64,000 bases of DNA from an uncultured delta proteobacterium (GCA_963737905.1 CAVTUQ010000029.1:45223-109222), one strand, 5' to 3'; shown: positions 1 through 61,697, counted from the stretch's first letter. Numbers and translations: made by a program. Notes: generated by a model not told the origin, from the letters alone.

Positions 1-43
1 CTGATCACCTTCTCCGCCCTCGCCAGCACATTAGTCGGGATCC
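1..43 (-). repeat. Orphan copy of the conserved 3' tail of ABC_sub_bind genes (IPTNVLARAEKVI..., runs off the window edge)
   Basis: Reverse complement reads GGATCCCGACTAATGTGCTGGCGAGGGCGGAGAAGGTGATCAG; upstream is a heptamer repeat instead of the expected ...KQIGLT coding sequence. Confidence 0.65.
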
Positions 44-49
44 TATCAG

Positions 50-150
50 CAAATCCGCATTCCGAATATCCAAATCCGCAAGGGGCCGTATAGAATTTTT
101 CCTAATTGAACATTTGAATTCGTTTCGAATTTCGGATTTTTGATTTTGCT
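50..150. repeat. 7-bp-period imperfect repeats in inverted arrangement (AAATCCG/AAATCCA-type vs TTTCGGATTT-type)
   Basis: aaatccgcattccgaatatccaaatccgc ... tttcgaatttcggatttttgattttg. Confidence 0.6.
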
Positions 151-266: not shown

Positions 267-461
267 ATGAAAGGGATCAAGCGCAAAAACTACTCCCTGG
301 ATGAGGCCAAGGTCAAAAAGTTGAGACGCCTTTTGAAGACCCGCAGCGATACAGAAGCAGTCCATAAGGCTGTCGACTTGGTGCTTTTCCAGCAGGAGGC
401 AGTCAAAGCGTGGATCGAGAACGCGGGGGCGGGCGGCGTCGAAGATCTCTATGCCCGCTAA
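267..461 (+). CDS. Antitoxin, VapB-like (short ribbon-helix-helix type)
   Basis: RBS GGAGGG at 254-259 before ATG 267; 64 aa RKNYSLDEAKVKKLRRLLKTRSDTEAVHKA; overlaps the PIN gene. Confidence 0.75.
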   Translation: MKGIKRKNYSLDEAKVKKLRRLLKTRSDTEAVHKAVDLVLFQQEAVKAWIENAGAGGVEDLYAR

Positions 462-882
462 ATATATTTTTGACACCAACATTTATATTCACTGCCTGCA
501 GGACCGCGCTTTTGCCCTAAGGCACGCCGACCAATATTCTCGCTTTCTGCCATTGACCTATTTTTCAAGCGTTGTGGCCCAAGAGCTCCTCGTAGGCTGC
601 ACCGATGACCTCGCTGTAAGACGGGTGCAAAACTTTTTGTTGCCTTTTGAACGGGTACGGCGCATCGTCAATCCAACCTATCAGAACTGGAAAGACGCCG
701 GGCTGATTGTCGTCAAGATAACTCTGCGCCAGCCTAACTTGAAAAGCAAAAAAATCGCCTTGGTCAACGACACGCTCATCGCCTTGTCATGCCGTGATAT
801 TGGCGCAACGGTTGTGACGCAGAACATAGAAGATTTTCAATTAATCCGGCGGTTTGTTAGCTTTCGCTTTCAAGAATTTTAA
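451..882 (+). CDS. PIN-domain (VapC-like) toxin
   Basis: N-terminal FDTNIYI, SVVAQEL, NDTLIA, VVTQNIEDF PIN acidic motifs; 143 aa. Confidence 0.9.
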   Translation: MPAKYIFDTNIYIHCLQDRAFALRHADQYSRFLPLTYFSSVVAQELLVGCTDDLAVRRVQNFLLPFERVRRIVNPTYQNWKDAGLIVVKITLRQPNLKSKKIALVNDTLIALSCRDIGATVVTQNIEDFQLIRRFVSFRFQEF

Positions 883-937: not shown

Positions 938-1025
938 CCACCGAATCACCTGATTCGCCCGCGCCAGCCCATTCGGGGGATCGCCGATCCATTTTGGATT
1001 TTCGTTTGCGGCGCCGATTGTTCGG
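938..1025 (-). repeat. Heptamer repeat plus orphan duplicate of the ABC_sub_bind 3' tail (PPNGLARANQVIR)
   Basis: On the minus strand after the stop at 1026: ccgaacaatc...gaaaatccaaaatggatcggcgatcccccgaatgggctggcgcgggcgaatcaggtgattcgg. Confidence 0.65.
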
Positions 1026-1625
1026 TCATCGGATCACTTTGTCCGCCCGATATAGTAACGATTGCGGAATGTTACGCCGATTTGCTTCGCTGTCTTAAGA
1101 TTAATGACAAGCTCGAACTTCGTTGGCTGCTCGACCGGCAGATCGGCGGGTTTAGCTCCGTTCAGGATTCTGTCCACATAATAAGCGACGCGCCGGAAGC
1201 TTTCGTCTTGGTCGGCCCCGTAGGACAGGAGCCCGCCGCCACCGACAAATTTCTGTTGCTGTAAGCCGAAGGCAATCGCCTTTTTAACGCGAAGCCCACA
1301 ATCCGTTTCTGGTTAGTAACTATTGTTGGACTGGCGCCGGCCACGTAGAGTCCATCCAGGCGCTGCTTACCCATCGCGGCAAAAACCTTATCGAAATCGT
1401 CCGGAACTCGCACCTCCCAAGGTTGGATAATCAACTTTAGTGCGTGCGCGGCCACTGGGAGAAGCTCTTTTACCTCTCGTACACCGGCCGGATTACCCAA
1501 ATCGTAGAGAACCGCGACACGAGCAAGTTTGGGAACGGCTTCCTTGAGCAGCTCTAGCCCGCTTCCCGCCGAGGTCTCTCGTAAGGTTTGCAATACCGGT
1601 GACGTTGCCGCCGGGGCGGGTGATG
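1026..1625 (-). pseudogene. 5'-truncated, frameshifted ABC_sub_bind (PF04392-like) solute-binding protein
   Basis: Segments RPGGNVTGIANL / LELLKEAVPKLARVAVL / [37 protein letters not shown] / IPQSLLYRADKVIR* lie in different frames; N-terminal part absent; resembles the copy at 44776. Confidence 0.85.
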
Positions 1626-1673
1626 CACCTCTGGGCCCTAACACGACGGAGACAAAACCAAGTAAGAGTGAAT

Positions 1674-1743
1674 CGCGCAAAGGCGCAAAGGCCGCAAAGG
1701 AAAGAATGAATCTCAACTTGGCGTTCTTGGCGTCTTGGCGCGA
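1674..1743. repeat. Inverted repeat of ~8-9-bp-period units (CGCAAAG ... CTTGGCG)
   Basis: cgcgcaaaggcgcaaaggccgcaaag ... cttggcgttcttggcgtcttggcgcg. Confidence 0.7.
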
Positions 1744-26856: not shown

Positions 26857-26936
26857 CGTTCAAGGTTCAACGTTCAAAGTTCAATGTGGACGAGACCGCC
26901 TGTCTCCTTGAACCTTGAACCTGGAACTTTGAACTT
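26857..26936. repeat. Inverted 7-bp-period repeat (GTTCAAG/A ... TTGAACC)
   Basis: gttcaaggttcaacgttcaaagttcaatg ... ccttgaaccttgaacctggaactttgaac. Confidence 0.8.
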
Positions 26937-26990: not shown

Positions 26991-28910
26991 CTATTTCCCT
27001 GCGCCAGCCGAGGATTTGAGGCGCCGAACATCGCCGATTCTAATGGTCAGGCCCTCGCGATCAAAATATTCCAATAGGGGGATCGTGTACTTGCGGCTGG
27101 AACCGATAAGATCGCGAAATGATGCGGCAGCAATCTCACCTTTTTCAGAGAGAAATTTCTTGAGAACAGCCCTCACCCGATCGACCGTGCTCGATAGATA
27201 ATAGAGATCGCTCGTCACTCGAATTACAGATCCGTCTCGTTCCAATAACCGGATGACCTCAGTCAACTTGTTACGGTTGACGCCGAGCTGCTTTTCGATC
27301 TCCTTCAAGTCCGGCGGTGACATCGGTTGCTCGCCGAGGATCTTCTTGATTCCGTCCATGAGGGATTTTTCCTGGCCGCCGAGCTGGACCCGATGTTCCG
27401 CTGTGCGCAGCAGATTCTCTTCCTTGGCGATGGCCTTGTCCGAAATGAGAGCATCCACGACAGCGCGAAAGATCTTCGCCGAGAGCGTGTACGGGAGTTT
27501 TCCGCGCAATTCCTCCATGTCCATTCCTGGTACAAGAGCATGCGTTTTGTGGAATTCCTTCAATGTGACGAGGATCGTGGCCTTCAACCGCTGCCCTTTG
27601 CTGTCGGTCGTGTAAACTCGTTCGCCCTCTGCATTGAAAGCGCGAAGACTTTCGATCTTATCGAGTTGCGCTTTTACCACCTCTTCGTGCAGGTTTAAGA
27701 ACTGTTGGATCGATTCCATGGGTAGAGCAAAGTCACCGCTTTCGTTTAGAAAGCTCTCGGTGAGTTGCGTCACGTCCCCCAGATGCAGCGATTTCAGACG
27801 GTTTTTTAGGTTAGGCTCTCTGCGTTTATGCTTACTTGCCCAGGGATGGATGACGACCCCGCCGCCGAGTGTTTTTCTCGCCGTCTCGTCGCGGATAATA
27901 AAATGATCGTTGCGCAGAGCCAGCAGAGGCTCGGAAAGCGTGATTTGACAGTACGTCGACTCCTTCGGACCGACCTTGTCCTCGGCGCCCAGAAGGATGA
28001 TCTTGGCAAGCCGTTCTGCGGTGCCAAGGTGCACTCGGATTCGCTGATGATTTTTGATTCCCTTTGCCGCTGCTGGTCTGACTTCCAAAAATGCATCGAA
28101 TCGGTCCGACGTTAGAGTGAGTTTCTCGTGACAGATGACGTGTCCCCGTTCGATTGACGCTCGCTCCGGCCCGCTCAAGTTCAGGGCTACCCGCTGGCCC
28201 CATCCCGCCGTGTCCACCGAACGACCATGCACCTGCAAGCTGCGCACGCGAAAAAGCTCGCCTCCGGGCAAACAACGCACACGATCGCCGGTTTGAACTT
28301 CGCCGCTGAGAGCGGTTCCCGTGACGACGACGCCATGTCCTTGCATTACGAAGGCACGGTCCACGGGGAGTCGAAAGTAGCCGCTCGGGACGGACTTGCC
28401 GGTGCTCTTCAGTGTCCGCGAAAGTAAATCCTTTAACTCCGTGAGTCCCTGTCCGGTCACCGACGATACCGCAACAATCGGAGCATCCTCCAACACAGTG
28501 CCAAGGGTAAGAATTTTGATTTCTTCTTCGATCTCCGGGATTCTCTCGGGAGAAACCAGATCGACTTTGGTAATAGCGAAGATCGCCATCTTCACGCCGA
28601 GCAGGTGGACGATATCCAAGTGTTCTTCGGTCTGGGGCATGACGCCGTCATCGGCGGCGACGGTGAAGAGAACCAAGTCGATGCCGTGCGCCCCGGCGAG
28701 CATGTTTTTGATGAAGCGCTCGTGCCCGGGAACGTCGACGACGCCCGCTTGCGTTCCATCCGGTAGATCGAGATGAGCAAATCCCAGATCGATGGAGATG
28801 CCGCGCTCTTTTTCCTCCTTCAGGCGGTCCGTATCCTGTCCCGTCAGTGCTTTGATCAGGCTGGTTTTTCCGTGATCGATGTGGCCGGCGGTGCCGATGA
28901 TGTAGGGCAT
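26991..28910 (-). CDS. selB: Selenocysteine-specific elongation factor
   Basis: [44 protein letters not shown]-terminal [13 protein letters not shown] winged helix. Confidence 0.97.
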
Positions 28911-28920
28911 CTTTGAGTCA

Positions 28921-29031
28921 GTTCAAAGTTCAGGGTTCAATGTTCAACGTGCCGCCTTTGGCCCGGTTCAAAGTTTTGTGTTCAAGGTTGGGACGTGGGG
29001 ACGTTGAACCTTGAACTTTGAACCTTGAACC
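28921..29031. repeat. Inverted 7-bp-period repeat (GTTCAA ... TTGAAC)
   Basis: gttcaaagttcagggttcaatgttcaacg ... ttgaaccttgaactttgaaccttgaacc. Confidence 0.8.
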
Positions 29032-29067: not shown

Positions 29068-30471
29068 CTACGAGGGCTCGGCCCTGTTTAAATTCGGGAC
29101 CAGCTCCTGAGGATCGAAGATGGTTCTCAAGTCGAGGAGGAAACGGTCGTCCTTGATTCTGCCGATGATCGGGGGATTTGCGTCTCGAAATTTCTTTCCG
29201 ATTGCCGCGGCGGTCAGCTTGGCGTGCCCGATGGCAATGACGACGGTGGGCAGTTCTTCCGTGGGCAAGGCGCCGCTGCCGATCTGAGAAGTGGAGTCTT
29301 CCAGCACAAGACGAAAGCCCTCTCCCAATACGGCTTGAAGCTTTGGCAACATAGCGTCGCCGAACTCGCGGATCTCATCAAGAGGACGGGTGAAGGCCCG
29401 CAAAGTTGGAATCGCCTGAGTGATGTCCGGCGATTGGCGGTAAAGTCTCAGAGTCGCCTCCAACGCGGCTAGAGTCAATTTGCCGCAACGCAAGGCTCGC
29501 TGCAGGTGATTCTTGTTGATTCGCTCGATCCACTCTCGGCGGCCGACCATCAGTCCCGCTTGCGGGCCGCCGAGAATCTTGTCACCGCTAAAGGTAACGA
29601 CGTCGGCGCCGGCGCGAATGCGTTCAGAGACGATCGGTTCTTTCGGCAGGCCATACCTGCTCAAATCGATCAACGCGCCGCTGCCCAGATCTTCCATTAC
29701 CGGAACGTTGTGCTTCTTACCGATGGCGACCAGCTGATCGAGAGTCACTTCGGAGGTGAAGCCCACGACTTTGTAGTTGCTCGCGTGCACTTTTAGCAAT
29801 AGCGCCGTCTGCTCATGAATTGCGTTTTCGTAGTCCGCCGGATGGGTGCGGTTGGTGCTGCCGACTTCTTTCAAAATCGCGCCGCTTTTAGCCATGACCT
29901 CGGGTATGCGAAAAGCGCCGCCGATTTCAATCAACTCGCCCCGGGAAACGATCACTTCCTTACCTTGGGCGAAGGTGTTCAACCCAAGGAGAACCGCCGC
30001 GGCATTGTTGTTGACCACGGTAGCGGCTTCCGCTCCGGTCAGATCCACAAGGAGTTGCTGGATCATTTCTTCACGCCGGCCGCGTTTGCCGGCCGCCAGA
30101 TCATACTCCAGGTTAATCGGGTAGCCGGCCACCGCCGTCATGGCATCGATCGCCGCTTGGGGCAGCAAGGCGCGACCTAAGTTGGTATGGAGGATCGTGC
30201 CGGTCGCGTTGACCACACGAACGTGACCCGGCACACTGTCGGCGCGGATGGCGGCCTCCAGTTTTTGGATGACCGCTTCATCGTCAAGGTCGCCGGGTGG
30301 AAGCCCCGCGTCTTGTCTGATTTCAGCCCGCAGCTGGTCGAGGACCTCGCGACATTTTTGCGTAACGTAATCACGATTGTAGCGAGTTAGGAGAGCTTCA
30401 CAGTGGCCATGCTTGAGAAGACGGTCGACAGATGGAATTTCGCGCAATAAATTTGTCACGGGTTCGGTCAT
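29068..30471 (-). CDS. selA: L-seryl-tRNA(Sec) selenium transferase
   Basis: VNATGTILHTNLGRA, VVNNNAAAV, SRGELIEIGGAFRIP, EDLGSG, FSGDKILGGPQAG. Confidence 0.97.
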   Translation of the reverse strand: MTEPVTNLLREIPSVDRLLKHGHCEALLTRYNRDYVTQKCREVLDQLRAEIRQDAGLPPGDLDDEAVIQKLEAAIRADSVPGHVRVVNATGTILHTNLGRALLPQAAIDAMTAVAGYPINLEYDLAAGKRGRREEMIQQLLVDLTGAEAATVVNNNAAAVLLGLNTFAQGKEVIVSRGELIEIGGAFRIPEVMAKSGAILKEVGSTNRTHPADYENAIHEQTALLLKVHASNYKVVGFTSEVTLDQLVAIGKKHNVPVMEDLGSGALIDLSRYGLPKEPIVSERIRAGADVVTFSGDKILGGPQAGLMVGRREWIERINKNHLQRALRCGKLTLAALEATLRLYRQSPDITQAIPTLRAFTRPLDEIREFGDAMLPKLQAVLGEGFRLVLEDSTSQIGSGALPTEELPTVVIAIGHAKLTAAAIGKKFRDANPPIIGRIKDDRFLLDLRTIFDPQELVPNLNRAEPS

Positions 30472-33291: not shown

Positions 33292-33419
33292 CGTTCAAAC
33301 AGTTCAAAGAGTTCAAGACGTTCAATTCGTCAGACGAGTGTAAGATGCGTTCAACCCACCAGCCGGACCGAATTTATCAAACGGCTTGAACGTTTTGAAC
33401 GACTGGAACGGTTTGAACC
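33292..33419. repeat. Inverted 9-bp-period repeat
   Basis: cgttcaaacagttcaaagagttcaagacgttcaa ... cttgaacgttttgaacgactggaacggtttgaacc. Confidence 0.8.
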
Positions 33420-35515: not shown

Positions 35516-35527
35516 TGGATCTTACGA

Positions 35528-35601
35528 CTTGAACGTCTTGAACGGTTTGAACTATTTGAACAAACTCGTTCCAGTCGTTCCAGACGTTCAAATCGTTCAA
35601 G
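35528..35601. repeat. Inverted 9-bp-period repeat between hydantoinase subunits
   Basis: cttgaacgtcttgaacggtttgaactatttgaac ... cgttccagtcgttccagacgttcaaatcgttcaag. Confidence 0.8.
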
Positions 35602-35614
35602 ACGTGGGGAAACA

Positions 35615-39789: not shown

Positions 39790-39837
39790 CGAAGGGCCAA
39801 GCGCAGAGAGCAAAGAGCAAGAAACGGGAGAAACCTG

Positions 39838-40829
39838 ATGCGAAGAAACGATATTGTTTTTACGCTTAGCGCTATGCTCTTTGCGCTTTGCTCATCGCGC
39901 CGAAGCGCAGCAGCCGAAGAAAATCCCTGCGATCGAATACCTAACCGCTATCCCTCGTACCTCGCTCGGCGCAGCTCCCCGCATCGAGGCCTTCCGGCAG
40001 GGGTTGCGCGAGCTTGGTTACCTAGAAGGGAAAAACATTTTCATTGAGTGGCGATGGGCAGCGGGAAAACAAGATAGTCTGCCCGGACTTGCGGCCGAGC
40101 TCGTTGAGTCTCAAGGTAGACATCATCGTCTCAGGTGGTTCGACGGCAACCCAGGCCGCCAAGGATGCGACGAGCACGATTCCCATTGTCATATCGCAGG
40201 ACAACGATCCTTTGGCGAACAGGTTTGTCGCCAGTCTGGCCCGGCCCGGTGGAAACATCACCGGTCTGGCTACACTCAGATCTGAGGTGAGCGGAAAACA
40301 CATGGAGATCCTTAAGGAGATCGTTCCGAAGCTCTCCCGCATCGCCGTGTTGGGAACTTCGAACAATCCGGGCAATGCCCAAGCGCTAAAAGAAATTGAA
40401 CTCGCCGCTGATGCGCTCAATGTGCAGCTGCAAATCCTCGACGTTCTGCTTCCCAAAAACATCGAGGTTGCATTTCGCACCGCAATCAAGGGGCGTGCCG
40501 ACGGCATCCTCGCACTGGCGAGTCCCGTTTTGAATTCCCATCGAACCCAGGTTGTCGATCTCGCGGTCAAGAGCCGCCTTCCGGCGATCTATGACAGGCG
40601 AGAATTTATCGATGCCGGGGGGCTGATGACTTACGGCGTGAGCGTCGTTGATATGGACCGACGCGCTGCGGTCTTTGTCGACAAAATTTTGAAAGGCAGA
40701 ACTCCGGCCGAACTTCCGGTAGAGCAGCCAACGAAGTTTGAATTCATCGTCAATCTCAAAGCCGCGAAAGCGATCGGCTTGATGATCCCGCCGAACGTGT
40801 TGGCGCGTGCGGACAAAGTAATTCGGTGA
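39838..40829 (+). pseudogene. ABC_sub_bind unit 3 (two frameshifts)
   Basis: Homologous segments split over ORFs 39838, 39854 and 40044. Confidence 0.75.
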
Positions 40830-42001: not shown

Positions 42002-42982
42002 ATGCCGACACATGTTTTTCTCATTGTTTTAACCTTTGTCATTGCGCTTAGTCTCCCCGCCCAGGCGCAGCAGCCGGCGAAGGTCCCGCGGATCGGATAC
42101 CTGAGTGGCGTTTCCCCTGCCGCAGAAGCCGCGCGCCGCGATGCGTTCAACCAGGGGCTGCGCGAGCTAGGCTATATCGAGGGCAAGAGCGTCGTCGTCG
42201 AATATCGCTATTAGGGGGAAAATCGGATCGCCTCGCTTCGTTGGTGGCGGAGCTGCTGCAGCTCAAGCCGGACATCATCGTCACCGGCGGCAGTCCGTCG
42301 ACGCGCGCCGCCAAGGCGGCGACCGCCACGATCCCTATTGTGATGACGAATGATCCCGATCCCGTAGCCAACGGATTAATCGCTAGCCTGGCGCGACCAG
42401 GTGGCAACATCACGGGATTATCCACTCTCGCTCCGGAGCTGAGCGGCAAAAGATTGGAGAAATTAGGAGAAGTACGTTCCCAATCTTTCTCGCGTCGCCA
42501 TCCTCGGGACCTCGACGAGCCCGGCCTACCGGCCCGTCAAGAAAGAGATCGATCTAGCCGCTAACGCTCTCAAGCTTCAGCTTGACTACCAAGACGTGTT
42601 GGATTTTAAGGATATCGAGTCTGCCTTTCGAGCCGCGGTCAAAGGGCGCGCCGACGCAGTCATGACACTCAACAGCGGGATCCTCAATTCCCAGCGAAGC
42701 CAGATCGTAAACCTCGCGGCAAAGCATCACTTTGCCACGATTTATACCCAGGCCGAATTCGTGGAAGTTGGCGGGCTGATGTTCTACGGCGTGAACCTGG
42801 TCGATCTGTCGCGCCGCGCCGCAACCTATGTCGACAAGATTCTCAAAGGCGCCAGACCTGCCGACATTCCTGTCGAGCAAGCAAAGAGGTTCGAGTTCAT
42901 CATCAATCTAAAGGCAGCGAAGCAGATCGGTCTGACGATCCCGCCCAACGTGCTGGCGAGAGCGGACAAGGTCATAAGATAG
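42002..42982 (+). pseudogene. ABC_sub_bind unit 5 (several indels)
   Basis: Segments in ORFs 42002, 42241 and 42596. Confidence 0.8.
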
Positions 42983-43029
42983 CAAAGGGCCAAGCGCAGA
43001 GAGCAAAGAGCAGAAACGGGAGAAACCTC

Positions 43030-44014
43030 ATGCGAAGAAACGATATTGTTTTTACGCTTAGCGCTATGCTCTTTGCGCTTTGCTTTTCCGCTCAGGCGCA
43101 GCAACCGACGAAAGTCGCCCGGATAGGATTCCTACTTGCTGTCTCCCCGTCTGCTGCCGCGGCCCGCACGGAGGTTTTCCGGCAAGGTCTGCGCGAGCTT
43201 GGGTACGTGGAGGCGAAAAACATCGTCATTGAATCGCGATATGCAGAGGGAAATTTCGATCGCCTCCCGGCGCTCGCGGCCGAACTGGTGCGTCTCAAGG
43301 TAGACATCATCGTCACGGCCGGCGGGCAAGCAACCCGCGTCGCCAAGGAAGCAACCCCTACGATTCCCATTGTCATGACGAACGATCCCGATCCCGTTGG
43401 CTCCGGGTTCGTCGCCAGTCTCGGGCGCCCGGGTGGAAACATTACTGGCTTGTCCACGCTTGCCCCGGAGTTAAGCGGAAAACGACTGGAGCTTCTCAGA
43501 GAGGTCGTTCCTAAGCTCTCCCGCGTTGCCATCGTCGGGACTTCAACCCAAGCGGGCCACGCGCAAGCGATAAAAGAGCTGGAACTCGCCGCAAAGGCGT
43601 TCAAGGTGCAGATTCAATATCTAGATGTTTTAAAGTCCAAGGATATCGAGACTGCATTTCGAGCCGCAGCCAAGGGGCGGGCTGACGGATTGCTCACGCT
43701 AACGAGCCCCATCCTCCGTTCTCAGCGAGCACAGCTTGCAGACCTTGCGGTGAAGAACCGGATCCCCGCGATATACAACGACATCCAATTTGTGGAAGCT
43801 GGGGGACTTATCTTCTACGGCGTGAGCTTTCGCGACTTGGACCGGCGCGCTGCAACTTACGTGGACAAGATTCTCAAAGGGCGCTAAGCCCGCCGATCTT
43901 CCGGTCGAGCAACCGACGAAATTCGAGTTCATCATCAATCTGAAAGCCGCCAAGCAGATTGGCCTGACAATCCCGCCGAATGTGCTGGCGCGGGCGGACA
44001 GAGTCATTCGGTGA
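43030..44014 (+). pseudogene. ABC_sub_bind unit 6 (single +1 frameshift at AAAGGGCGCT, ~43880)
   Basis: ORF to 43887; the conserved tail [16 protein letters not shown]...ADRVIR* continues in another frame to 44014. Confidence 0.75.
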
Positions 44015-45768: not shown

Positions 45769-46786
45769 GAAGGGGTGACAAAGTGGATCGAGGCATAGAA
45801 AAATACACGAAGAAAAAAGTCACGGTCGTTATTCTTTGCGCCATGCTCTTTGCGCTTTGCCCGCCCGCCGAGGCGCAGCAGCCGAAGAAAATCCCACGGA
45901 TAGGTTACTTGGGTGCCTTCACCCCTTCCGCTGGCGCCTCCCTCCTTGAAGCTTTCCGCCAAGGGCTGCGCGAGCTTGGCTACGTGGAGGGCCGGAAGAC
46001 TTCATTGATTACCGCTGGGCGGAGGGAACGCCCGATCGGTTCCCAGCCCTTGCCGACGAGCTGATCAATCTCAGGGTAGACGTGATCGTTACACAGAGCA
46101 ACGCAGCGGTGGCAGCTCTTCAGCAGGCGACCCGAACCGTACCCATCGTCGTGGCGGGTATGGGCGATCCTGTTGAGAGCGGCTTCGTCGGCAGCCTCGC
46201 GCGGCCGGCCGGGAACATTACCGGCTTCTCAAATCAAGCCGAAGAGGTCGCAGGCAAATGGGTGGAGCTACTCAGGGAGGCCGTGCCCAAGATTCCCGCA
46301 TCGCCGTCCTCGCAGTTTCCCAGACCTCGTCCCACCGCACCTATTGGGCACAGATCCAAGCGACGGCCCAAGCGTTGAAGGTGACTCCCCAGCGCCAAGA
46401 GGTGGTGGGACCGGACGAGATCGAGCACGCCTTCGCGAACCTCACCAAGGGCCATCCCCAGGGGCTCATCGTACTGCCGCATGCTGTCACCATCGAACGT
46501 CGAACGCAGATCGTGGACCTGTCAGCAAAGAACCGGCTGCCGGGGATGTACCCCTTTAGCTTGTTGTGGAGTCCGGTGGCCTCATGTCCTACGGGACGAA
46601 CTTGGCTGACCTGCACCGGCGGGCCGCCACCTACGTGGGCAAGATTTTGAAAGGCGCGAAACCCGCAGACCTTCCGGTCGAGCGGCCAATAAGTTCGATT
46701 TCATCATTAATCTGAAAGCGGCCAAGCAGATCGGTCTCACGATCCCACCAAATGTACTGGCCAGAGCTGACAAAGTAATTCGATGA
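45765..46786 (+). pseudogene. ABC_sub_bind unit 8 (multiple indels; ACG at the probable start)
   Basis: Segments in ORFs 45765, 46082 and 46258; tail [26 protein letters not shown] ends at 46786. Confidence 0.8.
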
Positions 46787-47805
46787 AACATCGCAAAGCG
46801 CCTGCGGAGAAACGCCGGAGAAGTCATGGGAGAAAAGTCTTCATTGGCTTAACGCTCGGCGCCTTGCTTTTTGTCTTATGCCCATGCGCCCATGCGCAAC
46901 AGCAAGCCAGGATACCTAAGATCGGCTGGCTCTCAGCCCGCCGCGCTTCAAACACTGGCCAAGAAATTATCGTCCGTATGCTGCGTGACCTCGGCTACGT
47001 TGAAGGCAAGAACGTAGTTTTCGAGTATCGATTCGCGGATGATAAGCTCGACCGGCTTCCCGCCCTTGCCGATGAGTTGGTCCGCCTCAAGGTCGATGTT
47101 CTCCTCACGCCCGGAACTCCCGGCGCCCTAGCTCTAAAAAAAGCTACCCGGACTATCCCCATCGTTTTTTTAGACGCCACGGACCCCGTTGCGGCTGGAC
47201 TGGTTGATAGCTTAGCTCGACCCGGGGGAAACATCACGGGGTTCAGCAGCATCGAGGCAATGTTGGCTGGCAAACGTCTCGAGTTACTCAAGGAAACCGT
47301 TTCGAAAATTTCTCGGGTTGCGGTCCTGTGGGATCCTCGGAATCCAGCCTCTATACAGGAATGGAAAGAGAGCCAACTCGCGGCCCGGGAACTCGGCCTG
47401 CAACTTCATTCTATGGAAGTAAGCAGCGCCGACAAATACCAGGACGCGTTCAAAGAGGCCATCAGGGCGCGTAGCGGCGCTCTTGCCGTGTTGTCGACCC
47501 CATTGGCCTCTTCCAATCAAGACCAGCTCGCGGAGCTGGCGGCGAGAAATCGGTTGCCGGCGATTTACGTCCAGGGAAGTTTTATTATCGATGGAGGTTT
47601 GATGTCCTATGGACCCGACCGCACCGAACGCTACAGGCGCATAGCGGTTTTTGTCGACAAAATTCTCAAAGGTACAAAACCAGCCGATCTCCCGGTGGAG
47701 CAGCCGAACAAGTTCGAGTTCATCATAAATCTCAAAGCCGCAAAGCAGATCGGATTAACAATACCACCGAATGTATTAGCCAGAGCTGACAAAGTAATCC
47801 GATGA
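46783..47805 (+). CDS. ABC_sub_bind unit 9 (open frame; exact start uncertain)
   Basis: AHA-QQQ, GYVEGKN, SLARPGGNITG, conserved tail. Confidence 0.88.
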   Translation: MKHRKAPAEKRRRSHGRKVFIGLTLGALLFVLCPCAHAQQQARIPKIGWLSARRASNTGQEIIVRMLRDLGYVEGKNVVFEYRFADDKLDRLPALADELVRLKVDVLLTPGTPGALALKKATRTIPIVFLDATDPVAAGLVDSLARPGGNITGFSSIEAMLAGKRLELLKETVSKISRVAVLWDPRNPASIQEWKESQLAARELGLQLHSMEVSSADKYQDAFKEAIRARSGALAVLSTPLASSNQDQLAELAARNRLPAIYVQGSFIIDGGLMSYGPDRTERYRRIAVFVDKILKGTKPADLPVEQPNKFEFIINLKAAKQIGLTIPPNVLARADKVIR

Positions 47806-47894
47806 TCGAACAATCTAAAATCCAAAATCGAAAATCTAAAATAGTAGGGATTCCGCCGAACGTGTTGGCGAGGGCGGATCGGGTCATAAGATGA
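47806..47894 (+). repeat. 'Empty' unit: AAAATC heptamer leader joined to a duplicate 3' tail ([15 protein letters not shown])
   Basis: tcgaacaatctaaaatccaaaatcgaaaatctaaaatagtagggattccgccgaacgtgttggcgagggcggatcgggtcataagatga. Confidence 0.8.
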
Positions 47895-47940
47895 AAGTTA
47901 CGATTTTCATTGTCGATTTTAGAGTGAGGGAGACAAAAAC

Positions 47941-48987
47941 ATGACTAAGAAAACTCGAGCGACGATCCGATGGGTTCCATCCGACAATCGGAAATCTAAA
48001 ATCGAAATCGAAAATGGTGGGGATCCTAGGCATCTTTTTCACTGTGTGCTTGTTAGCGCGGGGGTTCAAGCGCAGCAGCCAACCAAAGTGCCCCGGATAG
48101 GATATCTAAGTGGGGCCTCCTCTTCCACAATCGCGGCTCGCATCGAGGCATTCCGGCAAGGGCTGCGCGAGCTTGGTTATATAGAAGGGAAAAACATTAT
48201 CATCGAATGTCGATATGCAGAGGGAAAAGCTCGATCGCCTTCCGGCGCTCGCGGCCGAGCTAGTGCGTCTCAAAGTGGACGTGCATCTGTCTGCCGGGGC
48301 AGCGGTCACCGGTCCTGCTAAGGAACGCCACGGAGACAATCCCTATTGTCATGGCTCAGGATACCGATCCTGTCGGAAACGGGTTCGTCGCCAGCCTTGC
48401 GCGACCTGGCGGAAACATTACCGGACTCTCCTCCTATTCACCGGAGATAAACGGAAAACGAGTAGAGCTTCTTAAGGAGATCGTACCTAAGCTTTCCCGC
48501 TTAGCCGTGCTCGGGCAGTCAACCTATCCAGGCAACTCCCAAGCGTTAAAAGAAACGGAACTCGCCGCAGAAGCGCTGAAGTTACAGCTCCAATACCTAG
48601 ACGTGTAAGATCCAAGGACATCGAGACGGCGTTTCGAGCAGCAAGCAAGACGCGTGCCGGCGGAGTCCTCGTGCTGCAGAACAATGTCCTCAATTCTCAG
48701 CGAAAACAAACTGTTGATCTCGCGATAAAGAACCGACTTCCGACGATCTACCACGTTCCAGAATTTTTGGAAGCGGAGGGCTGATAAGTTACGCGGCGAG
48801 CATCAACGACTTGTACCGGCGCTCCGCCACATACGTGGACAAGATTTTGAAAGGCGCCAAGCCTGCCGACCTCCCGGTGGAGCAGCCGATCAAGTTCGAG
48901 TTCGTCATCAATCTGAAAGCGGCCAAGCAGATTGGATTAACCATTCCACCCAACGTTTTGGCTAGAGCAGACAAAGTCATAAGATGA
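47941..48987 (+). pseudogene. ABC_sub_bind unit 10 (multiple indels); leader contains the AAAATC heptamer repeat
   Basis: Segments in ORFs 47941, 48215 and 48351; tail ends at 48987. Confidence 0.8.
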
Positions 48988-49103
48988 CGGTGAGTAGTGA
49001 GCAGAAAGCGGTGAGCAGCGGAAAACGCGGAAGGCAACCCACAAGTAAGAACGTCTTTTTTACTGGGACTTCAGGCATTCCTGTGAAGTCGGACTCGGAG
49101 ATT

Positions 49104-49190
49104 GCACCGCGAAGGCGCGGAGGACGCGGAGTAAAGAGTTCTTGATTAAAAAATTCTCCGATCTCTGCGAACTCGGCGCCTCTGTGGTGA
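49104..49190. repeat. CACCGCGAAGGCGCGGAGGACGCGGAG ... CTCTGCG..CTCTGTGGTG inverted 9-bp-period repeat
   Basis: Direct reading of the two arms. Confidence 0.7.
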
Positions 49191-49240
49191 ATACTTTTTC
49201 ACAGAAAACCCGGAACAACCTTTTTACTAAGGAGGATCCT

Positions 49241-50468: not shown

Positions 50469-50518
50469 TTAACAGTAAGCAGAGAGCAGTGAGCAGTAAA
50501 AACAAGAGGAGCCAAACA

Positions 50519-51481
50519 ATGATGAGAAAGTTTAATGTCCGCTTACTGCTTACTGTCTTCCTGCTTACTGTTTCTTTCGCCGAGGCGCAGCAGCCAACGA
50601 AAATCCCGCGGATAGGTTATGTCGCCACTACTGCTCCCGATACACCTAACAACTTGGCATTCCGACGAGGACTGCGAGACCTCGGTTATATTGAAGGGAA
50701 AAACATCCTGGTTGAGGATCGCTACGCCGCGGGAAAAGCGGACCGCATCCCTAACCTTGTGGCGGAACTGGTGCAAATGAAAGTAGATGTCCTTGTCTCC
50801 CCGGTTGTAGCCGCGATCCGCGCAGCGAAGGAGTCGACCAAGACGATCCCCATTGTCATGGTAATAGCTGATGATCCAGTCGCAACGGGGCTAGTCGATA
50901 GTTTGGCCCGTCCCGGAGGAAATATCACGGGACTCACCAGACTTACTCAGGAGCTGAACGGAAAACGCCTGGAACTTCTTAAGGAAGTGGTCCCGACAGC
51001 AACGCGTGTCGGAGTCCTCTCAGTTGCCGGCTTTACAATCTTTAGAGAGTACGAGGCTGCGGCGCGCGTGCTAAAGATACATCTTCAGTCCCTGGAGGTA
51101 CGAGCTCCGAACCCTGATTTGGAGGGTGCATTTCGAGATGCGGTCAAGGGGCAGGTGAGAGCGCTTATCGTGGCGAGGGCGCTCGTCGGTTACCGAAAGC
51201 AGATTGCCGACCTCGCCATCAAAAACCGCCTGCCTCTCATGTCCGAAGGGAGTGACTTCGTGGACGCTGGTGGTCTCGTGTCTTATGCAGCTATCGATGC
51301 AGAGAATTACCGGCGCGCCGCTTATTACGTCGACAGAATCCTGAAAGGCGCTAAGCCAGCAGACCTGCCCGTAGAGCAGCCAACGAAGTTCGAATTCATC
51401 ATCAATCTCAAAGCGGCCAAGCAGATCGGATTAACGGTACCGCCGAACGTGCTGGCGAGAGCGGATCGGGTTATTCGCTGA
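50519..51481 (+). CDS. ABC_sub_bind unit 11 (intact)
   Basis: RBS GAGGAG; AEA-QQP; conserved tail. Confidence 0.92.
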   Translation: MMRKFNVRLLLTVFLLTVSFAEAQQPTKIPRIGYVATTAPDTPNNLAFRRGLRDLGYIEGKNILVEDRYAAGKADRIPNLVAELVQMKVDVLVSPVVAAIRAAKESTKTIPIVMVIADDPVATGLVDSLARPGGNITGLTRLTQELNGKRLELLKEVVPTATRVGVLSVAGFTIFREYEAAARVLKIHLQSLEVRAPNPDLEGAFRDAVKGQVRALIVARALVGYRKQIADLAIKNRLPLMSEGSDFVDAGGLVSYAAIDAENYRRAAYYVDRILKGAKPADLPVEQPTKFEFIINLKAAKQIGLTVPPNVLARADRVIR

Positions 51482-53507: not shown

Positions 53508-53557
53508 CAGTGAGCGGTGAGCAGTAAGCAGCAAAAACCGCGGGGAGAAACTCATCA

Positions 53558-54544
53558 ATGGATAAAAAAGTCTTTCACCTTGCTCTTTGCACGATGCTCA
53601 TTGCATTTTGCTGTTCTGCTCAGGCGCAGCAGGCAATGAAAGTCCCCCGGATAGGATTTCTAAGTGCTGCCTCGCCGTCCGCTATCTCGGCTCGCATCGA
53701 GGCATTTCGGCAGGGTCTGCGCGAGCTCGGGTACGTCGAGGGGAAAAACATTATCATTGAGTGGCGATCTGCAGAGGGAAAACTAGATCGGCTTAGTGAG
53801 ATTACGGCCGAACTAGTGCGCCTCAAGGTAGACGTCATCGTCACGGGTGGTCCGATACCAACTCGTGCCGCCAAGGAAGCAACTGTTACGATTCCTATTG
53901 TCATGGCGTTTGATATTGATCCCGTTGGCTTGGGGTTCATCGCCAGCCTAGCGCGACCTGGTGGGAACATTACTGGATTGTCCACGCTTGCCCCGGAGAT
54001 AAGCGGAAAGCGACTGGAGCTTTTGAAGGAGATCGTTCCTAAGCTCTCGCATGTGGCCGTCTTTGGGACTTCGACTTTTCCGGGCAACGCACAAGCGTTA
54101 AAAGAGACGGAACGCGCCGCAGGGGCGCTCGCCGTGCAGCTTCAATACCTCGATTTACGAGGTTCCAAGGGTTTTGAGACCGCATTTCGGGACGCAACCA
54201 AGGGGCGGGCTGATGGGATTCTTATGCTCGTGTGGGGAGTCGCCCTTGATCCTCACCGAAAACAGCTCGTAGAATTGGCAGCAAAGAGCCGGCTCCCTGC
54301 AATATACGCAGATCGGGAACATGTGGAAGCCGGGGGGCTTATGTCCTACGGCGTGAGCATTACCGATTCGTTCCGACGCGCTGCCACATATGTGGACAAG
54401 ATTCTAAAGGGAAGAAAGCCAGCCGATCTTCCAGTGGAACAGCCGAAGAAGTTCGAGTTTATCATCAATCTGAAAGCAGCGAAGCAGATCGGCCTAATAA
54501 TACCGCCGAATGTGCTGGCGCGGGCGGATCAGGTCATCAGATGA
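53558..54544 (+). CDS. ABC_sub_bind unit 14 (intact)
   Basis: AQA-QQ; conserved tail ending ADQVIR. Confidence 0.92.
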   Translation: MDKKVFHLALCTMLIAFCCSAQAQQAMKVPRIGFLSAASPSAISARIEAFRQGLRELGYVEGKNIIIEWRSAEGKLDRLSEITAELVRLKVDVIVTGGPIPTRAAKEATVTIPIVMAFDIDPVGLGFIASLARPGGNITGLSTLAPEISGKRLELLKEIVPKLSHVAVFGTSTFPGNAQALKETERAAGALAVQLQYLDLRGSKGFETAFRDATKGRADGILMLVWGVALDPHRKQLVELAAKSRLPAIYADREHVEAGGLMSYGVSITDSFRRAATYVDKILKGRKPADLPVEQPKKFEFIINLKAAKQIGLIIPPNVLARADQVIR

Positions 54545-57055: not shown

Positions 57056-57116
57056 TGTTCAATGTTCAACGTGCCACGCTCCCAACCTTGAACTTTGAAC
57101 CCTGGAACCTTGAACC
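57056..57116. repeat. Inverted 7-bp-period GTTCAA/TTGAAC repeat
   Basis: atgttcaatgttcaacg ... ccttgaactttgaaccctggaaccttgaacc. Confidence 0.75.
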
Positions 57117-61654: not shown

Positions 61655-61697
61655 TTAACGACTTGAACTGCTTGAACGATTTGAACGGCTTGAACCA
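61655..61697 (+). repeat. 9-bp-period TTGAAC repeat
   Basis: ttaacgacttgaactgcttgaacgatttgaacggcttgaacc. Confidence 0.75.

Follow-up and report, generated by a model that had tools for sequence, protein, structure and literature searches.

A heptamer array and an orphan C-terminal tail stranded behind PF04392 substrate-binding protein genes, and their recurrence among related genomes

The window analysed in this work is a whole stretch of 64,000 nt, and its coordinates are counted from its first letter. According to Pfam, it holds a long tandem run of PF04392 genes plus NMT1-type binding proteins. The genome of the window (G000; 6.7 Mb, 46 contigs) contains on the order of 100 PF04392 loci as judged by tblastn and HMM searches, many of them frameshifted or truncated. 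Its nearest named records are a Candidatus Binatia MAG, which carries a protein 91% identical in amino acids to gene A described below (L013), and MAGs deposited as 'uncultured delta proteobacterium'. The structure under study is a stump at 47806-47894, located between an intact binding-protein gene and the next gene of the same family:

46783..47805, plus strand: gene A, an intact PF04392 (ABC_sub_bind) substrate-binding protein (Pfam E 1.5e-51)
46783, plus strand: start of gene A, its own ATG overlapping the TGA of the preceding pseudogene (ATGA)
47710..47805, plus strand: last 96 nt of gene A, including an AT-rich, putative replacement tail (tail1, 47761-47805)
47802..47805, plus strand: junction J1, an ATGA in which the gene A stop overlaps an ATG
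47806..47849, plus strand: array remnant (44 nt), with six bases, AATC, four NAAAATC heptamers and then AGTAGGG
47850..47894, plus strand: orphan 15-codon tail (tail2) with its own TGA; its first base is junction J2
47901..47925, plus strand: upstream arm of the gene B leader, with GATTTT-type heptamers complementary to the AAAATC arrays
47941..48985, plus strand: gene B, a 'full unit' with ATG, array (about 47981-48016), GGTGGGGATC, PF04392 body and tail

The heptamer array was delineated by TRF at 47812-47842 with a period of 7. An earlier note on this DNA had written the repeat as (AAAATC)n; the array is indeed present, although its true unit has seven bases, NAAAATC. The array remnant is homologous to the codons S-(D/N)-N-x-K-S-K-I-E-N-L-K-W-x-G in the signal-peptide n-region of intact paralogs. 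Tail2 is homologous to the PF04392 C-terminus, being recognized by the tail model in nhmmer (E 1e-12) and by positions 313-327 only of the protein HMM. Altogether, the window contains 14 occurrences of the tail pattern, compared to 0.23 expected from shuffles. Tail1 and tail2 share 30/45 bases, with mismatches mainly at third codon positions, where the A+T content equals 0.64 in tail1 vs 0.37 in tail2; the codons of tail2 are GC-type, as in ordinary tails. Because of this low identity and the third-position differences, tail2 is not a fresh duplicate of tail1, and a target-site duplication is ruled out by the differing codon style of the two tails as well as by their identity.

The leader of gene B has the same composition as the stump, CCGACAATC + array + GGTGGGGATC, but continues into a PF04392 body. 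A full unit had been noticed at this position before, and it is present, though its body is frameshifted several times in the assembly and falls into five HMM pieces in different frames. Some of the frameshifts at PF04392 loci may be assembly errors. The proposal that a body was lost between the array end (…GGGAT) and the tail (ATTCCG…) is also consistent with our analysis, in which the stump is what remains.

Three successive ATGA stop/start overlaps were observed in the window at 47802-47944. The ATG at 47802 within the gene A stop opens a 30-aa ORF through the orphan tail; the stop of this ORF overlaps the ATG at 47891 of a 17-aa ORF, which crosses the gene B upstream arm and ribosome site, and the stop of the latter overlaps the gene B ATG at 47941. 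Such a relay, with short coupled ORFs leading up to the next gene, was found in 1/18 tandem pairs and is therefore treated as chance.

In intact paralogs, the array is coding sequence. The intact leaders at C27:13482, C27:18815, C29:44073 and C19:87456 read it in frame. For instance, intact paralogs show M-x-K-K-F-R-I-R-F-x-F-S-x-S-D-N-R-K-S-K-I-E-N-L-K-W followed by a hydrophobic core and AQA|QQP, or an n-region such as MHKKFRIRFGFSRSDNRKFKIENLKW… followed by a hydrophobic core and AQAQQP. The 24-nt insert found in some arrays is in frame as well (C29:44073). Since the intact paralogs translate straight through it, the array encodes a long basic n-region of a signal peptide. By treating this segment as a 'leader', the earlier note had overlooked its coding capacity as a signal-peptide n-region, and it had also missed the ATGA stop/start overlap at the junction between stop and array.

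All copies have the same arrangement at J1, namely …ATC CGA TGA, six bases and the AATC-array. An overlapping stop and start codon (ATGA) is a known arrangement of translational coupling. J1 is likewise an ATGA, and in a same-genus genome (G001) its ATG opens a full gene, a 304-aa PF04392 ORF with a signal peptide (L031/L064; MIEQSKIQNLKS, hydrophobic core, AEA|QE…; PF04392 E 8e-35, profile positions 22-248). Unlike in translational coupling, the coupled ORF in the stump has no conserved product. Of 18 tandem pairs in G000, 6 have an [AG]TG that overlaps the TGA of the gene before and from which an open frame leads into the next body, one of the six being the start of gene A. On the evidence of the L031/L064 ORF and of these tandem pairs, we therefore regard J1 as an ordinary coupled gene start. 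If so, a single deletion, joining the array end to I-P-P… at J2, suffices to make a stump. As the array is coding and the J1 ATG opens a full gene elsewhere, the stump can be read as a coupled downstream paralog minus its ~0.9 kb body.

Two ATGA-coupled full genes of genome G001, L005 and L031/L064, differ by one heptamer. With three units (L064), the body lies in the ATG frame; with four units (L005), it lies in the frame of the upstream stop. This difference could mean that the 7-base unit works as a frame switch, or it could reflect an assembly error or a pseudogene.

The fusion of a leader to a duplicate tail had been described at three places of the window. It stands as described at 47806-47894; at 938-1025 it is present in a decayed form, and the segment 1-80 is only loosely alike. 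The features at the latter two places are as follows:

938..982, minus strand: decayed orphan tail of the second copy, frameshifted by one missing base and with its stop lost (nhmmer E 1e-6)
983..1025, minus strand: array remnant belonging to the second copy; it adjoins the stop at 1026-1028
1026..1716, minus strand: 5'-truncated PF04392 pseudogene before the second copy (HMM positions 131-314 only)
1..41, minus strand: third orphan tail (IPTNVLARAEKVIS, stop), running 4 nt beyond the window start (nhmmer E 9e-10)
42..80, minus strand: different heptamer array of the GCGGATTTG type, in opposite orientation, before the third orphan tail; another module

The third orphan tail starts at the same codon as tail2 and is without a preceding binding-protein stop codon. 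It adjoins a PIN-domain (VapC-like) gene at 451-882 (plus strand), upstream of which lies a 64-aa ORF (267-461, plus strand) with no Pfam match. Oriented oppositely, this pair separates the two orphan tails of the minus strand and is preceded by an AAATCC/GGATTT heptamer hairpin at 45-155.

The module occurs at six sites of G000: C29:93116 (gene A), C29:46160 (the copy at window position 938), C7:403614, C7:406930, C42:911 and C2:486522. At C19:98700, an array is joined to a decayed piece of the last 8 codons. Orphan C-terminal fragments in G000 begin 46-167 nt before the stop. They cluster at 46-52 nt, where nine loci were counted (the six module copies and three other contexts), and the rest are scattered; internal deletions are also present among the PF04392 loci. 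The earlier note had expected a constant junction position at orphan tails; these tails in general proved heterogeneous, with the array-linked class alone being uniform. One of the scattered fragments (C37:142449) belongs to another kind of empty unit at C37:142260-142449: after a leader, an ATG opens a complete signal peptide (MKKKITLLLFALCSLRFA) that continues in frame into the 22 C-terminal codons of the family, and the resulting 44-aa ORF is followed by ATGA and an array with two mini-inserts.

Many short tandem arrays with a period of 7-9 bases precede genes, and they frequently form inverted pairs on either side of the ribosome site and the start codon. In the window, such arrays were annotated at 26857-26934, 28920-29031, 33293-33418, 35524-35605, 39799-39893, 42981-43092, 50473-50571, 53508-53605, 57084-57116 and 61657-61695. 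The heptamer differs by gene (GTTCAAA, AGCAAAG, CAGTGAG and others). Where the units are AGCAAAG/CTTTGCG, the signal-peptide hydrophobic core is encoded by the downstream arm. Strong inverted arm pairs were found at no fewer than 10/53 intact PF04392 gene starts by a crude ungapped search; because this search misses imperfect arms, the number is a lower bound. Arrays are not restricted to binding-protein genes: selB (26991-28910, minus strand) and selA (29068-30471, minus strand) are each flanked by GTTCAAA/TTGAACC heptamer arrays. Four-unit AAAATC arrays also lie in frame inside adenylation-domain-like ORFs of G000 (C26:191885 and C26:195152; …ENPKSKIQNPKW…), between conserved blocks, and thus heptamer arrays also occur as in-frame insertions in large enzymes. 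Two kinds of insert were seen within arrays. A mini-insert of ~24 nt (…CCTGT.CTGAGC……GAAG.ATC) recurs in AAAATC arrays and is in frame where the array codes; it was located in G000 at C7:407033, C22:136469, C29:44056 and C37:142461, and in relatives at L036, L063, L004 and L013. A GC-rich palindromic insert of ~14 nt is present in arrays from several other genera (L012, L047, L049, L050, L052, L053 and L061), with 0 copies in G000.

When the J1 pattern was searched in 61 genomes of the family, matches were found in 37, and the reversed control gave 0 in every genome. As read from the rows listed, the strict GATGA form occurs in 23 published genomes, the other matches being arrays elsewhere. 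We collected 52 loci and classified the 47 J1 sites, from 22 genomes and 15 genera, G000 included, that passed the filters. This set excludes the unpublished L003 and L010, in which the same layout was seen, as well as L061 and the window-938 copy, which failed a filter; none of the conclusions depends on the unpublished genomes G012, G006 and G057. The 47 sites were classified by what follows J1:

whole orphan tail (J2): 30/47
last ~8 codons (J2'): 8/47
binding-protein body: 2/47
something else: 7/47

Stumps therefore outnumber full coupled genes by 38 to 2. The expectation of the earlier note that the layout would be met in other assemblies is thus borne out. The leader between the tails measures 30-72 nt among copies, and L004 shows the series tail-array-tail-array-partial tail.

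All of the genomes are MAGs, the tails and arrays are repetitive, and the gene B frameshifts are possibly sequencing errors, which together raise the question of a chimeric join at repeated tails or arrays during assembly. We consider such an artefact extremely improbable. The layout recurs in 22 independently assembled genomes, the J1 control stayed at 0 in all 61, and contigs from public metagenomes of soil, rhizosphere, bog and groundwater (four unrelated runs) bridge J1 over 47710-47840 with ~90% identity, one public-run contig also bridging J2 over 47811-47868 with ~90% identity. No public run with the locus of this particular genome was found (best share 0.11), and the run contigs cover only the family-conserved parts plus J1 and J2.

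The comparison of module-bearing genes with their relatives revealed a mosaic pattern. L013, the ortholog and sister of gene A, is without the module. The two genes agree at 749/810 positions over 46900-47709 vs 73/96 over the last 96 nt (Fisher p 4e-6), and by this measure the 3' end of gene A has a different history from its body. The tail of L013 matches tail2 at 38/45 positions vs 35/45 for tail1, a small difference that concerns gene A only. The genes in front of the module in relatives reach 49-60% identity with gene A, much like its own paralogs (49-55%).

The same tendency was observed when 25 module-bearing copies were compared with 50 ordinary G000 paralogs. Pairwise identity among the former is slightly lower until 60 nt before the stop, and their identity excess is limited to the last 60 nt (+0.04, +0.04, +0.11, +0.19). 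Third-position A+T is raised solely in the last 15 codons of module-bearing genes (0.62/0.60/0.79 vs 0.38/0.32/0.48). Orphan tails and ordinary tails are alike in third-position A+T (0.37 vs 0.37) and equally diverse; the orphan tails include other tail subtypes (IPQSVLF…, IPPEVLARAN…), and 22/28 of them have kept the open frame and stop. Across L002, L046 and L051, which represent three genera, a 46-nt leader is identical at 46/46 positions, with tail1 matching at 35-39/45 and tail2 at 30-35/45. The two C7 copies of G000 share 45/45 positions in tail1 and 68/70 in the leader, including the same 24-nt insert, or 113/115 together; their bodies are 70% identical, their tail2 sequences agree at 30/45, and their downstream flanks are unrelated. 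The unit composed of the AT-rich 15-codon tail, the stop and the array is thus more conserved than the genes that host it.

A maximum-likelihood tree was built for 66 bodies after removal of the signal peptide and the last 42 profile positions. On this tree, in which the relatives' rows were chosen for carrying the module and their non-module genes are absent, the 12 module-bearing genes need 11 changes, compared to 11.2 for shuffled labels. At least 6 of the 11 changes are forced by well-supported branches, which places carriers in at least 6 paralog lineages. To judge from this tree, the same unit sits on unrelated PF04392 lineages. Between the two histories offered by the earlier note, loss of the body 'once, then spread' fits best, given the C7 pair, the 46-nt leader in three genera and the scatter of carriers on the tree.

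We lean, by a little over even odds, toward one or two deletions followed by homologous recombination that copied the unit to the 3' ends of further paralogs. The ancestor would have been a PF04392 paralog that started at an ATGA overlap, was translationally coupled to the gene in front and opened directly with a four-unit AAAATC array as its basic n-region. A deletion of ~0.9 kb would have fused the array end (…K-W/S-x-G) with the 15 C-terminal codons of that gene (I-P-P-N…), and the second class (J2') would stem from a join to the last ~8 codons. The resulting unit would consist of the AT-rich 15-codon tail, the stop and the array, flanked by what every paralog has: conserved C-terminal codons on the left and a tail on the right. 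Because of these common flanks, gene conversion, or recombination anchored in homology and with only a short overlap on the right, could paste the unit before any tail. Copying of this kind would amount to a miniature C-terminal displacement, in which the recipient's own tail remains downstream as an orphan, probably not translated. We infer both the deletion event and recombination as the means of copying from the sequence comparisons above. No evidence of a function for the stump was found.

Several observations complicate the preferred account of copying. The diversity of tail2 would be equally expected if each stump had its own deletion. For recombination of the RecA type, a right-hand crossover limited to the ~10 bases at the start of the tail is short. 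Nor would neutral decay predict that 46 nt of non-coding sequence are identical in three genera. Moreover, the GC-rich palindromic insert is shared by J2 arrays (L047/L049/L050) and J2' arrays (L052/L053/L012); since the same array sub-variants occur with both junctions, either recombination between arrays or repeated deletions are needed.

These points bear on a serious rival, recurrent deletion at hot spots, in which the bodies of ATGA-coupled, array-led paralogs were lost independently in each lineage, with end points set by microhomology or by the small CCGCC…GGCGG hairpin of the tail, and with only ordinary duplication besides. The short arms of this hairpin begin at J2 and J2'. The tail points are also used in other contexts: a TCAG-type heptamer array (C26:287271) runs into the last 8 codons, tails of 46-52 nt border on unrelated sequences at C19:50362 and C42:1079, and the J2' point recurs behind unrelated sequence at C12:104139. 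Such joins at the same tail points hint at breakpoint hot spots. The G000 fragments clustering at 46-52 nt come from four sequence contexts, but by a rough estimate this cluster is not significant when the choice of its limits is allowed for. The occurrence of J2 and J2' with the same array sub-variants and the many other deletions in the family would also suit repeated loss. However, the C7 pair cannot represent two independent deletions, because tail1 and leader agree at 113/115 positions including the same insert. The bases at the array-tail join share states among stumps (…CG-NN-AGGCG) unlike the two full J1 genes (…CGGTGGGGC… and …TGGTGGGGC…), the leader is the same at 46/46 positions in three genera, and a body is retained at just 2/47 junctions. 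On balance, we regard recurrent deletion as a rather unlikely, albeit serious, substitute for copying.

A dedicated small mobile element is a third reading, and one that we doubt more strongly. Here an enzyme acting in trans, perhaps the machinery that disperses heptamer arrays, would insert the 46-nt core, or tail1 plus the core, at a specific site, the first codon of the conserved tail. The insertion point is constant for three or more tail subtypes, an identical core lies between differing flanks in different genera, stumps are far commoner than full genes, and arrays lie in frame inside NRPS-like ORFs. In addition, an exact 31-nt array is present in 2 copies in G000 and in further copies in L040-L043, with non-binding-protein contexts at C3:38249 of G000 and in L040-L043. 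Against such an element, neither terminal inverted repeats nor a target-site duplication, as expected of MITEs or IS-derived elements, were found at the stump. Its left edge is an identity gradient rather than a sharp end, the leader length is variable (30-72 nt), no significant fold was detected at 47795-48030 (z -0.08), and Pfam identified no recombinase or transposase, IntI-type tyrosine recombinases included, among the 41 window ORFs scanned.

The suggestion of the earlier note that the junction marks a defined excision site or an att-like unit is likewise not supported. The leader is a direct heptamer array, no inverted repeat or hairpin-forming boundary of the attC kind was found in the fold of 47795-48030, and no Rfam family matched at 46700-49200, where two sub-threshold chance matches lie elsewhere in the range. 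The stump shares with integron cassettes the same-strand units and their recurring boundary; it differs from them by having neither a hairpin-forming imperfect inverted repeat nor an integrase in the window, and by its units being paralogs of one family.

A related and speculative possibility, which we would not expect to be correct, is a selfish, enzyme-less mini-element of ~90 nt (alternative tail, stop and array). It would invade the last 15 codons of PF04392 genes, remain harmless by bringing its own tail, and spread within genomes, possibly between genera, either by homology or by the process that disperses arrays. The number of heptamers could then set the frame of coupled downstream genes.

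Finally, the array and tail might form an intercistronic device that tunes the translation or mRNA fate of the next gene, e.g. through a coupled mini-ORF or alternative pairing with the leader arm of the next gene. The three consecutive ATGA overlaps at 47802 / 47891 / 47941, the capacity of the array to pair with the gene B upstream arm, the 22/28 intact orphan tails and the high conservation of the leader are compatible with this reading, which we nevertheless judge improbable. Only a minority of the copies with frames listed have the orphan tail in frame with the ATG, and the relay exists in 1/18 tandem pairs. Most copies have no complementary arm behind the module, the next genes using other heptamers, and at the stump the fold (z -0.08), Rfam and terminator searches were all negative.

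Several more specific candidates were rejected. A conserved mini-ORF or peptide through the array is contradicted by its being in frame in a minority of copies and interrupted by stops in most, with 30 aa in the window. Translation continuing into tail2, by stop-codon read-through or ribosome bypass, does not agree with the frames, which differ between copies because the leader varies between 30 and 72 nt. A structured RNA or terminator was discarded in view of the absent Rfam match, the z of -0.08 and the absence of a terminator at the stump. A diversity-generating retroelement is inconsistent with repeats of 45 nt whose differences are of the synonymous type and not adenine-specific, and no reverse transcriptase was seen.

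Among known systems, the e14 and phage 21 elements integrate into the 3' end of E. coli icd and bring a replacement 3' end. As at gene A, the gene stays intact with an alternative tail carrying synonymous differences, and the native tail is left as a pseudo-fragment. In contrast, the icd elements are kilobases long and have an integrase and an att site, whereas the stump has 44-72 nt between the tails and no integrase was found in the window. Cyanobacterial STRR are arrays of heptanucleotide repeats. Further heptamer arrays are the TAACTGA repeats of Beggiatoaceae (MacGregor 2015, PMC4679880) and the GGGAATC repeats of Xanthomonas and Nostoc (Rehm et al. 2015, PMC4692102). All these arrays resemble those reported here in their 7-base period, their intergenic position or location at gene starts, their frequent arrangement as inverted pairs and their large number per genome; the difference is that here the array is translated as an n-region in intact genes and, in the stump, is stranded between two tails.

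The closest likeness is with C-terminal displacement at rhs, CDI and T6SS effector loci, where 3' regions become orphaned. For these, homology-facilitated illegitimate recombination is proposed in Kirchberger et al. 2017 (PMC5361080), which cites Jackson et al. 2009 for rhs. As described there, a new 3' end is acquired by recombination anchored in the conserved upstream part and the old end is orphaned downstream, repeated events giving strings of orphans, to which the series in L004 may be compared. Unlike in that description, the stump brings no new cargo: the 15 residues specified by the replacement tail are nearly unchanged. Moreover, no more than 45 nt are displaced, a heptamer array originating from a signal-peptide coding region serves as the spacer, and the donors are paralogs of the same genome instead of foreign toxin tips. 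No description of this module was found in a limited literature collection covering heptamer repeats, homology-facilitated illegitimate recombination and Binatia/PF04392. We conclude that the structure is real and widespread: a variant of known processes, in which a gene remnant is combined with C-terminal displacement or gene conversion in a setting of heptamer-repeat leaders, and not an integron-like cassette site.

The stump shows how a very large paralog family, with ~100 PF04392 loci of which many are broken, evolves, and that gene junctions, besides genes, can act as heritable and copyable units. For annotation, it explains the duplicate tails behind intact genes. Short ORFs across such arrays are not genes, and a start within an ATGA overlap is genuine in this lineage where an array encodes the n-region of the signal peptide. 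An identical 46-nt non-coding core amid differing coding flanks also offers a handle on the heptamer-repeat phenomenon. If it is true that the copying exceeds ordinary recombination, the module would represent a new kind of target-specific mini-element.
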